DNA from: Escherichia coli
Lineage (GTDB): Bacteria; Pseudomonadota; Gammaproteobacteria; Enterobacterales; Enterobacteriaceae
NCBI RefSeq assembly: GCF_024223415.1
Contig: NZ_CP100500.1
Length of the DNA stretch: 64,000 nt
Strand: one strand, 5' to 3'
The notes below the pieces were generated by a model. That model was not told where the DNA came from, ran no database searches, and saw nothing but the letters and a program-made list of their open reading frames with translations. Below, one piece after another: positions 3,498 to 5,051 of this stretch. Made by a program: the position numbers and the translations under genes. The stretch's first letter is position 1. Each line of letters opens with the position of its first letter.

Positions 3498-4031
3498 ATG
3501 AGCGCAAAAATCAAATACGGCCTGTCAGCTGCTGTTCTGGCGCTGATTGCTGCAGGCGCGTCTGCTCCTCAAATACTTGACCAGTTTCTGGATGAAAAAG
3601 AGGGTAACCACACTACGGCATACCGCGATGGTTCCGGTATATGGACCATCTGTCGTGGTGCCACAATGGTGGATGGTAAGCCCGTCATACCGGGAATGAA
3701 GCTGTCGAAGGAAAAATGCGACCAGGTTAACGCTATTGAACGTGATAAGGCGCTGGCATGGGTGGAGCGCAATATTAAAGTACCACTGACCGAACCACAA
3801 AAAGCGGGTATAGCGTCATTCTGTCCCTATAACATTGGCCCCGGTAAGTGTTTCCCGTCGACGTTTTATAAGCGGCTTAATGCCGGTGATCGTAAAGGTG
3901 CCTGTGAGTCGATTCGCTGGTGGATTAAGGACGGTGGGCGTGATTGCCGCACACGTTCAAATAACTGCTACGGACAGGTTATTCGTCGTGACCAGGAAGC
4001 AGCACTTGTGTGCTGGGATATCGACAGATGA
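3498..4031 (+). CDS. R: SAR endolysin (T4-lysozyme/GH24 family)
   Basis: The N-terminal Gly/Ala-rich segment YGLSAAVLALIAAGASAP is a signal-arrest-release type segment. The catalytic E-8aa-D-5aa-T triad is present (EGNHTTAYRDGSGIWT). The gene pairs with the pinholin. Confidence 0.9.
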   Translation: MSAKIKYGLSAAVLALIAAGASAPQILDQFLDEKEGNHTTAYRDGSGIWTICRGATMVDGKPVIPGMKLSKEKCDQVNAIERDKALAWVERNIKVPLTEPQKAGIASFCPYNIGPGKCFPSTFYKRLNAGDRKGACESIRWWIKDGGRDCRTRSNNCYGQVIRRDQEAALVCWDIDR

Positions 4032-4123
4032 GCAGAATATTTTGCTGAAAAATGACGTTGGCCAACGCGGACGGATAACACGATATTCGACATAAATGAA
4101 TTTAAATAGTGAATAAAAGCAGA

Positions 4124-4160
4124 AACCCCGATTGTTGGTCGCAATCGGGGTTTTGTGTTT
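4124..4160 (+). terminator. Strong intrinsic terminator just after the endolysin gene
   Basis: 11-bp stem AACCCCGATTG/CAATCGGGGTT, 7-nt loop, then TTTTGTGTTT. Confidence 0.7.
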
Positions 4161-4216
4161 CTGGCAGTAAGTTATGGGAGGCTGCCTTGATTAATTTTAG
4201 CGGAGGAGACTGGATT

Positions 4217-4354
4217 GTGGAAGCTCTGAAATTGCTCGAAAGAAGTCCGGTTCTGAGAAGAATGTTTTATATAGCTCTTATAGTTATCGGAGCATTCGCC
4301 GTTGCGAAATCACTTCCGGGAATAGCTGAAATCATAAAGGCGCTGAATGCATAA
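4217..4354 (+). CDS. Small single-TM protein (45 aa), candidate
   Basis: GTG start preceded by GGAGGA. Product VEALKLLERSPVLRRMFYIALIVIGAFAVAKSLPGIAEIIKALNA. The longer track ORF from 4109 would run through the terminator hairpin. Confidence 0.4.
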   Translation: MEALKLLERSPVLRRMFYIALIVIGAFAVAKSLPGIAEIIKALNA

Positions 4355-4520
4355 AGAATACCTGGCTGAGGCTGACAAACAGGTCTCTGAATTGAAAGCT
4401 CCGGTAACCGATGACATCAGCGGAGCGGTGGCTTTTGCCATTAAGTGGGTGGCAGTCGGCGTTGCTATATCACCGGTACTGTATGGGCTGGCAAAGCTGG
4501 TTATTGCGTTGAAATCATAA
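4347..4520 (+). CDS. Small C-terminal-TM protein (57 aa), candidate; below the ORF-track size cutoff
   Basis: ATG at 4347 overlaps the previous stop (ATGCATAA). Hand translation: MHKEYLAEADKQVSELKAPVTDDISGAVAFAIKWVAVGVAISPVLYGLAKLVIALKS, stop at 4518-4520. Confidence 0.4.
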   Translation: MHKEYLAEADKQVSELKAPVTDDISGAVAFAIKWVAVGVAISPVLYGLAKLVIALKS

Positions 4521-4583
4521 CTGTTACGGCCAGGTGATTCGTCGTGACCAGGAAAGTGCATTAGCCTGTTGGGGGATAGATCA
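4521..4583 (+). pseudogene. Remnant 3' end of a second, diverged endolysin allele (direct repeat of 3965-4027)
   Basis: It would encode [21 protein letters not shown], compared with the [21 protein letters not shown] end of the intact R. By hand alignment about three quarters of the nucleotides are identical. It abuts the Rz start as a normal R/Rz junction would. Confidence 0.75.
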
Positions 4584-5051
4584 GTGAGCAGAGTCGCCGC
4601 GATTATTTATGCTCTGGTTATCTGCATCATCGTCTGCCTGTCGTGGGCGGTCAATCATTACCGTGATAACGCCATCGCCTACAAAGAACAGCGTGATAAA
4701 AAAGTCAGTGAGCTGAAGCAGGCGACCGCCACCATTACTGACATGCAGCAACGCCAGCGTGCTGCTGATGTACTCGATGCTAAATACACGAAGGAGTTGG
4801 CTGATGCGAAAGCTGAAAATGATGCTCTTCGGCGCAAGCTTGATAATGGTGGTCGGGTGCTCGTCAAAGGAAAATGCCCTGTGCCATCCTCAGCCGAAAC
4901 CTCCAGCGCCTCCGGCATGGGCAATGATGCCACCGTCGAACTCTCTCCAGTTGCTGGACGAAACGTTCTCGGTGTCCGGGACGGAATTATCCGCGACCAA
5001 ACAGCACTGAGAACGCTTCAGGAATACATCAGGACGCAATGCCTTCGATGA
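4584..5051 (+). CDS. Rz: i-spanin Rz
   Basis: GTG start overlapping the remnant R stop, an N-terminal TM segment ([17 protein letters not shown]) and a coiled-coil periplasmic domain. Rz1 is embedded in the +1 frame. Confidence 0.9.
4804..5010 (+). CDS. Rz1: o-spanin Rz1 (lipoprotein embedded in Rz)
   Basis: [19 protein letters not shown] lipobox and a Pro-rich mature part [11 protein letters not shown], resembling recalled lambda Rz1. Confidence 0.85.

Follow-up and report, generated by a model that had tools for sequence, protein, structure and literature searches.

Two predicted small membrane-protein genes in a probable mosaic cassette between the endolysin and spanin genes of an Escherichia coli prophage

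What separates the endolysin gene from the spanin genes in a lambda-like prophage of Escherichia coli, how did it get there and what might it do? We addressed this question in a 64,000-nucleotide stretch of contig NZ_CP100500.1 (assembly GCF_024223415.1), called the window here, whose first ~30 kb include part of such a prophage. On the plus strand, the gene for the endolysin R (3498-4031) and the gene for the inner-membrane spanin subunit Rz (4584-5051) flank a segment with a terminator hairpin and two short open reading frames (ORFs), ORF1 (4187-4354) and ORF2 (4347-4520). Judging from sequence comparison, this endolysin-spanin gap is very probably a recombinant accessory cassette of a phage-21/lambda-type prophage lysis operon, assembled from at least four ancestries. 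Low substitution ratios show that ORF1 and ORF2 are real genes under purifying selection. We propose a function for them more tentatively. Loci used for comparison are designated L001, L002 and so on.

We observed that R is intact and ends at 4031, as an earlier sequence-only reading of this DNA had claimed; its product has 177 amino acids and matches Pfam Phage_lysozyme (E 1.6e-24). A repeat search with alignment revealed two plus-strand copies of the R/Rz junction, copy 1 at 3961-4036, which includes the last 71 nucleotides of R, and copy 2 at 4517-4592. The copies are 76 nucleotides long and identical at 58 of 76 positions (binomial tail 5e-19; ~2e-12 once all position pairs in 3.1 kb are allowed for). 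Copy 2 holds, as a remnant, the last 21 codons of another R allele (codons 4522-4584, stop 4585-4587). The diverged second R tail of 21 codons reported by the sequence-only reading is thus real, but the coordinates it gave (4521-4583) were one base off. The GTG start of Rz at 4584 overlaps the remnant's stop codon as GTGA, and the remnant carries the Rz ribosome-binding site (GGGGGA, 4571-4576), 7 nucleotides 5' of the Rz start. The R remnant appears to have been retained as the holder of this site, persisting because the Rz ribosome-binding site sits in the R tail.

A comparison with prophages in which R and Rz adjoin, which had been suggested earlier, revealed the source of the right arm. 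From exactly 4517 on, the window was 98.1% identical to uninterrupted lysozyme|Rz junctions present in 1332 of 5426 complete E. coli genomes; an uninterrupted junction that matches the right arm also occurs in phages mEp460 and PhiR47_1. Because copy 2 and Rz are 98.1% identical to foreign junctions whereas the two copies are 76% identical to each other, we conclude that two R alleles were joined by inter-phage recombination. Duplication of the R tail in situ was ruled out, since copy 2 is closer to foreign junctions (98%) than to its own R (76%). We also rejected a transposon-type insertion with target duplication, as there are no flanking inverted repeats and the copies are different alleles.

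The left junction has a different history. Overlapping the end of R on the plus strand is a dead Rz start (4028-4048; ATG AGC AGA ATA TTT TGC TGA) that stops after six codons, exactly as first described. It marks an old insertion point, three codons into Rz. The same relic is present in L001, L002, L004, L005 and L007, where it is mutated to ATAAGCAGA. Sequence comparison with other R-Rz inserts defined a plus-strand left arm (4032-4121), the first 55 nucleotides of which (4032-4086) were 87-98% identical to five other R-Rz inserts and ~81% identical in L002. The inserts sharing this arm include those of E. coli E7-1N7, phage PhiR5_1 and Shiga toxin 2a (Stx2a) phages, and their contents otherwise differ. 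Since the 55 nucleotides after R recur in differing inserts, the left junction is old and common to many E. coli and Stx prophages. In five of six comparisons, with L002 as the exception, these nucleotides were more conserved than the last 70 nucleotides of R (75-91%). They include a perfect palindrome, GTTGGCCAAC, at 4057-4066. The stretch 4032-4086 may be a protein-binding site or a non-coding element, for example an RNA that derives from the 3' untranslated region and stops at the hairpin. A search of Rfam returned nothing relevant at the gathering threshold over the whole window or at E <= 10 over 3800-4800.

A consensus scan identified the hairpin as a bidirectional intrinsic terminator (4117-4164, both strands). 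Its stem (4122-4154) is followed by a T-run, and an A-tract lies upstream. Its folding energy of -24.1 kcal/mol (z = -5.3) was not reached by any of 200 shuffled sequences. The strong terminator first read at 4124-4160 is therefore confirmed, and it scores on both strands.

ORF1 can be read from two starts. The long form (55 amino acids, plus strand, 4187-4354) begins with TTG and has the Shine-Dalgarno sequence GGGAGG at 4176-4181. The short form (45 amino acids, plus strand, also ending at 4354) begins at an internal GTG at 4217, with the Shine-Dalgarno sequence GGAGGAG at 4202-4208. We observed that the N-terminal extension is conserved: distant ORF1 homologues start MNF(S/N/T)xG(E/D)WIV, upstream of GTG 4217. 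Given this conserved N-terminus, the main ORF1 product is probably the 55-residue protein from TTG 4187. The internal Shine-Dalgarno sequence and GTG 4217 were kept in 6/6 lineages, where synonymous-codon randomisation expects 4-8% per lineage (Fisher's combined p = 9e-4). Because the internal start is kept beyond codon expectation, the dual start looks to be under selection. In some ORF1 lineages, only the short form is encodable.

The start of ORF2 (plus strand, 57 amino acids) overlaps the stop of ORF1 in ATGCATAA at 4347-4354, an overlap that had been noticed at first sight and is borne out. This layout suggests that the two ORFs are translated in tandem. The ratio of nonsynonymous to synonymous substitution rates (dN/dS) was 0.05-0.25 over seven diverged copies of ORF1, with synonymous sites near saturation, and 0.03-0.28 over the 39-codon conserved core of ORF2. 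Reading-frame conservation, a check named in the sequence-only reading, is thus evident for both ORFs. AlphaFold predicted three helices for ORF1, namely an N-terminal amphipathic, a membrane and a C-terminal amphipathic helix (predicted local distance difference test score, pLDDT, 79.5); the hydrophobic core has an uncharged stretch of 15 residues only. For ORF2, it predicted one long helix (pLDDT 81; >90 in the membrane part), with the transmembrane helix at the C-terminus. Both products have a hydrophobic core and are predicted to be single-pass membrane peptides. The sequence-only reading had called single-transmembrane peptides of 45 and 57 amino acids, of which the membrane character and the 57 residues hold, but ORF1 more likely encodes 55 residues with an internal start.

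Neither peptide had been recognised from the sequence alone. This remains true of ORF1, for which we found no match in Pfam, PHROGs, NCBIfam or PADLOC, but not of ORF2, which belongs to the common PHROG 1115. ORF2 residues 11-57 match profile positions 21-67 of the 67 in phrog_1115 (E 1.1e-26, 93 bits). Within PHROGs, ORF2 matches function-unknown families only (PHROG 1115 and the related phrog_4493 and phrog_3246), and it matches nothing in Pfam, NCBIfam or PADLOC.

These parts allowed us to distinguish four ancestries. The first comprises R, the relic of the old insertion three codons into Rz and the conserved left arm. The second comprises the hairpin and ORF1 to 4353, together with ~18 first codons of a coupled partner; its hairpin-ORF1 stretch (to 4353) shares 88-90% identity with a module that a prophage of another type carries between its baseplate genes. 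The third is the C-terminal 39 codons of a PHROG-1115 gene (ORF2 codons 19-57), which have 96% DNA identity with L001 and E. coli E7-1N7. ORF2 is therefore chimeric, with a breakpoint at ~4400 and an N-terminus that travels with ORF1. The fourth is another phage's last 21 R codons, fused to intact Rz/Rz1. The joint between ORF2 and the R remnant is common to the window and E. coli E7-1N7. As first proposed, the R-Rz segment was inserted or exchanged by recombination at the junction, but not as one private insertion, since the left junction and the ORF2|remnant joint are shared and ORF2 is chimeric. A mosaic of this kind is ordinary lambdoid biology.

The arrangement is rare but recurrent. An identical ORF1 product was found on 15 contigs from draft genomes and metagenomes. 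Eight of these contigs were fetched (L008-L015), and they carry R-ORF1-ORF2 and, where length allows, Rz, with 98-100% DNA identity over the cassette. L016 has the R-ORF1-ORF2-Rz arrangement with a near-identical ORF2. The arrangement was present in 0 of the 5426 complete E. coli genomes. The GC content was 0.415 at 4000-4300 and 0.49-0.53 in R and Rz, a modest difference.

The ORF2 family is very common: one identical relative alone was present on 996 contigs, and 316 loci were found in IMG/VR. Among the best 80 of these 316 loci, 79 have the ORF2 relative in the R-Rz gap, and the remaining one follows a GH108 endolysin. The usual order in these loci is S21 holin, in some cases DUF1327, then R, ORF2, a phrog_4906 peptide and Rz. 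The window ORF2 shares this R-Rz location with the common PHROG 1115 genes, but its first ~14 residues are replaced. Unlike the window, the common loci have a phrog_4906 peptide and a different Rz allele downstream, with no ORF1 and no R remnant. In Salmonella, we observed two diverged PHROG-1115 paralogues in tandem (L026 3805-4168; L027 165-528). Those of L026 follow a SASA-domain tail-fibre gene, so the ORF2 family also occurs outside lysis cassettes. As many as four unrelated single-transmembrane genes of 30-60 amino acids, chained by stop/start overlaps, can occupy the R-Rz gap of E. coli prophages. Such arrays, with PHROG 1115, phrog_4906, IRWW-ending peptides (phrog_6632) and others, occur at L005 2269-2720, L007 2640-2800 and L001 2930-3045. 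In the Stx2a phage L007, the IRWW gene contains an in-frame TAG.

The ORF1 family is rare, with 11 representatives in 1.84 billion proteins and 87 clusters in a larger collection. Named members come from E. coli, Salmonella, Klebsiella, Yersinia, Sodalis, Paracandidimonas and Acinetobacter. Of 5426 complete E. coli genomes, 29 carry a full-length DNA homologue of ORF1, and none of the 22 among the matches listed has a gene annotated there. A tblastn search with three family members gave no credible match in 50,697 phage records. A scan of species-representative genomes gave no ORF1-family match with a search pattern that assumed an ATG start.

ORF1 relatives directly follow endolysin genes of four unrelated types: GH24 signal-anchor-release (SAR) lysozymes (the window and L036-L041), M15 peptidases (L023-L025), GH108 (L021, L022) and GH19 (L020). 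The GH108, M15 and GH19 partner endolysins have no N-terminal signal anchor, i.e. they are soluble. In almost every lineage examined, a bidirectional terminator whose sequence varies by lineage lies 30-65 nucleotides 5' of the ORF1 relative. Inspection of homologous leaders revealed no recognisable promoter between that terminator and the ORF1 relatives. The ORF1 stop is, in most contexts, overlapped by the start of a small gene that follows. This partner varies and can be ORF2, a 54-residue relative with a different membrane helix, a 36-41-residue RWW-ending peptide, a lipoprotein or a soluble protein. The ORF1-ORF2 pair recurs with the same overlap after the M15 peptidase endolysin of L023-L025, which indicates a conserved pair. 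Related genes (e.g. P0100) share the leader and swap halves, which explains cassette exchange.

Lysis cassettes L021-L025 differ in other respects as well. They encode holin_8 and holin_3_7 and a GH108 or M15 endolysin, with no recognisable Rz. After the ORF1/ORF2 relatives comes a 60-residue lipoprotein of phrog_7528, with the lipobox LAGC or LVGC and three further cysteines (L022 5174-5356; L023 4172-4354), and in L021 and L022 the lysozyme-inhibitor gene ivy is next. The phrog_7528 lipoprotein may be an unrecognised outer-membrane lysis component.

We then considered how ORF1 and ORF2 would be expressed. A scan limited to sigma-70-type sites detected no plus-strand promoter of that type in 2300-5400, and manual inspection of 4032-4216 revealed none. 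In view of the missing sigma-70 promoter between the terminator and ORF1, late, Q-antiterminator-dependent expression is probable. Q-modified, terminator-resistant RNA polymerase would read through the hairpin, and ORF1 and ORF2 would be made late, together with S, R and Rz. The first terminator downstream of the insert is at 5225-5244, 3' of Rz. ORF1 might then be made as two isoforms, of 55 and 45 amino acids, that act as a timer like holin/antiholin pairs. At the weakest step of this proposal, ORF1 and its partner could assemble into a small complex in the inner membrane and adjust the membrane step with which infection ends. We take this step to be holin triggering or lysis timing and not a lysogen function.

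The combination of a mosaic cassette, real genes, late expression and lysis modulation is our best explanation of the locus as a whole, and we offer it tentatively. The lysis-modulator function by itself is a more doubtful proposition. The link to lysis is favoured by the four endolysin types that ORF1 relatives follow and by the R-Rz location of ORF2 relatives. Several observations weigh against it. Searches of Pfam, PHROGs, NCBIfam, PADLOC and the literature gave neither an experimental nor a homology link to any lysis function for ORF1 or ORF2. The rare and sporadic occurrence of the ORF1 family is odd for a useful lysis factor. The ORF1 C-terminus, KSLPGIAEIIKALNA, has a net charge of +1, unlike the highly charged tail that holins typically have. 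Neither Q nor the late promoter PR' falls within the window, and the promoter scan was restricted to sigma-70-type sites. More distant ORF1 relatives lie in tail operons: in a baseplate island and, at classic moron sites, after J or the tail fibre and at the tail tube|chaperone, chaperone|tape measure and gpM|gpL positions. The position beside R may simply be a permissive hot spot. Finally, a SAR-endolysin-specific, releasin-like role was excluded, because the partner endolysins of ORF1 and ORF2 include the soluble GH108, M15 and GH19 enzymes. A spanin role was rejected as well: ORF1 and ORF2 lack both cysteines and a lipobox, neither has an extramembrane tail of more than 25 residues, and the true Rz/Rz1 genes are at 4584-5051.

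Comparison with characterised lysis proteins gave a mixed result. ORF1 resembles lambda S105/S107 and phage 21 S68/S71 in being a small lysis-cassette membrane protein beside the endolysin, with two in-frame starts that are apparently selected and each have a Shine-Dalgarno sequence. Unlike these dual-start holins, ORF1 has a single short transmembrane segment, and its starts are ten codons apart as against one to three. It also differs from holins in lacking a charged C-terminal tail and a holin-family match (Pfam, PHROG, NCBIfam) and in having relatives in tail operons; the cassette already has an S21-type holin. Small transmembrane proteins required for lysis have been described, namely Lcc6 of LambdaSo (10.1101/2024.01.23.576932) and the releasin of phage Mu (PMC9239132). 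ORF1 and ORF2 are like Lcc6 and the Mu gp25 releasin (DUF2730), recently recognised single-pass phage membrane proteins of 45-100 amino acids that act, or are proposed to act, at the holin/endolysin-release step. Unlike them, ORF1 and ORF2 show no homology and no DUF2730 match in Pfam, and they accompany soluble endolysins too; the Lcc6 gene lies at a distance from the lysis genes. We searched the literature for lysis-cassette morons, small membrane proteins and the peptide strings and found no study of the ORF1 or ORF2 proteins.

The main rival to lysis modulation is a lysogenic-conversion or superinfection-exclusion moron, whose peptides would be made in the lysogen, through read-through or a promoter that escaped recognition, reside in the inner membrane and block DNA entry of other phages as HK97 gp15 does. 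We consider this unlikely: the locations agree with it, but the missing promoter and the upstream terminator do not. Morons of lambdoid phages were reportedly described by Juhala et al. in 2000; a later review includes HK97 gene 15 (PMC3594210). The insert is like a moron in that it is extra late-operon DNA between genes adjacent in relatives, encodes small inner-membrane proteins as found at moron hot spots, and has a GC content below that of its flanks. Neighbouring islands carry the conversion genes Ivy, LprI, Lom and antirepressors, and the ORF1 relative L042 lies between the tail chaperone and tape-measure genes, which is the HK97 gp15 site (PMC3594210). Against these points, there is no sequence similarity to HK97 gp15/YebO, and BLASTP against HK97 gp15 gave no alignment at E <= 100. 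Unlike morons, the window insert has two coupled genes and no sigma-70 promoter of its own was detected. The terminator is upstream instead of downstream, and transcription into Rz is unimpeded. There was no PADLOC match, and exclusion proteins are not known to have a conserved internal start.

We regard as quite improbable a type I toxin-antitoxin-like module, in which ORF1 or its partner would be toxic and a ~70-nucleotide cis-antisense RNA, running from 4221-4194 to the hairpin, would silence the ORF1 ribosome-binding site. A minus-strand promoter-like site (TCCACA, 16 nucleotides, TAAAAT) lies at 4194-4221, within ORF1 codons 2-12. The motif T(C/T)CAC(A/G), 16 nucleotides, TAAAAT occurs at the same codons in E. 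coli, Sodalis (10/12 match), Paracandidimonas and L042, in each case followed 30-65 nucleotides on by a minus-strand hairpin with a U-tract. The locus is like hok/sok in its small hydrophobic peptide of <60 amino acids, its upstream hairpin, the candidate antisense promoter in the 5' end of the gene and its overlapping coupled frames, the last of which are reminiscent of mok/hok. Convergent small RNA pairs are also documented at prophage moron sites (PMC4104026). In contrast to these likenesses, the antisense promoter lacks statistical support: synonymous-codon randomisation retained the promoter-like score in 10-60% of trials (combined p = 0.18), so the conserved amino acids suffice to explain the minus-strand motif. 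The motif is lost in L036 and L020, promoter-like sites in the region occur at the chance rate (4 vs 4.2 expected), and we found no sense promoter for a toxin and no Rfam match in the region. The antisense-RNA reading is therefore unsupported, and the 4194-4221 site is not supported as functional.

That the ORFs are passenger DNA, decaying remnants carried by recombination and functionless in this prophage, is very improbable: the arrangement is rare, some small genes in related inserts are pseudogenes (such as the L007 IRWW-type gene) and part of the late operon may be cryptic, but both frames are intact with low dN/dS, their overlap and Shine-Dalgarno sequences are conserved, and the ORF1 product is identical on 15 contigs, the eight fetched being near-identical in DNA.

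The cassette sits in an otherwise familiar lysis operon. A porin gene (75-1178, minus strand) lies at the start of the window. Three plus-strand tRNA genes (anticodons CAT, TCT and TGT; 1777-2009) precede the holin by ~400 nucleotides, and a tRNA cluster near the holin is also seen in many Stx and lambdoid prophages. The holin is of the phage-21 class II type (2405-2620; Pfam Phage_holin_2_1, E 4e-35). Between holin and endolysin are a plus-strand DUF1327/YdfR gene (2625-3176; 183 amino acids; phrog_2091) and a small convergent minus-strand gene (3124-3384; 86 amino acids; phrog_2572). The interval 2625-3384 is a second insert of the lysis cassette, and both of its genes belong to families without an assigned function. 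R is a SAR-type GH24 lysozyme whose translation shows an N-terminal hydrophobic signal-anchor segment. Rz, with its GTG start, is an i-spanin (inner-membrane subunit) of the lambda/mEp460 type (Pfam Phage_lysis, E 9.6e-29). The o-spanin Rz1 (outer-membrane lipoprotein subunit) is encoded in the +1 frame inside Rz (4804-5010, plus strand); its translation has a lipobox near the N-terminus, and we take it to be Rz1 from its resemblance to lambda Rz1.

A 50-residue plus-strand ORF at 5039-5191 has an ATG that overlaps the end of Rz and encodes an N-terminal hydrophobic segment. Gene calls include it in L010 and L016. The ORF ends before the 5225-5244 terminator, and its product may be one more small membrane protein of this lysis operon. 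The genes for terminase, tape measure, J and tail fibre lie 3' of Rz/Rz1. At the distal end of the prophage we observed a collagen-repeat tail-fibre gene (25384-27198, plus strand) and, at 28481-29644 (plus strand), a gene whose product has a YadA-like membrane anchor. Beyond the prophage part, there was no phage-family match in the rest of the window, and this DNA appears to be host DNA. It contains an OrzO-P antitoxin RNA (41456-41531, minus strand; Rfam RF02083, 99.9 bits) of the zor-orz type I toxin-antitoxin locus.

Lysis by phages of Gram-negative bacteria is usually told as three steps, carried out by holin, endolysin and spanin. The work on Mu gp25 and LambdaSo Lcc6 indicates that small membrane proteins can be additional essential lysis players. 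Strongly conserved genes for membrane proteins of 30-60 amino acids occupy the endolysin-spanin gap in a great many prophages of E. coli, Shigella and Salmonella, Stx phages among them. Our searches of databases and literature gave no assigned function for these gap genes, which are frequently missing from genome annotation. If they tune lysis timing or block superinfection, phage burst would be affected and, in Stx prophages that have such genes, possibly toxin release and prophage competition. On a broader and improbable view, the ORF1 family would be an unrecognised late-operon module in gamma- and beta-proteobacterial prophages, made up of a terminator, a dual-start 55/45-residue membrane protein and a coupled, swappable, tail-anchored partner, and acting as a generic lysis clock or antiholin-like regulator for any holin-endolysin type. 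If so, the 30-60-residue transmembrane genes in the endolysin-spanin gap would be a fourth functional class of lysis genes. Even if the two ORFs have no measurable effect, the locus clearly illustrates a lysis cassette built by illegitimate and homologous recombination, in which a gene tail is kept for the next gene's ribosome-binding site. What makes the finding valuable is a pair of conserved, unstudied small membrane proteins encoded at a defined, easily manipulated site of a lysis operon, one of them with an apparently selected dual start and a link to an upstream terminator.

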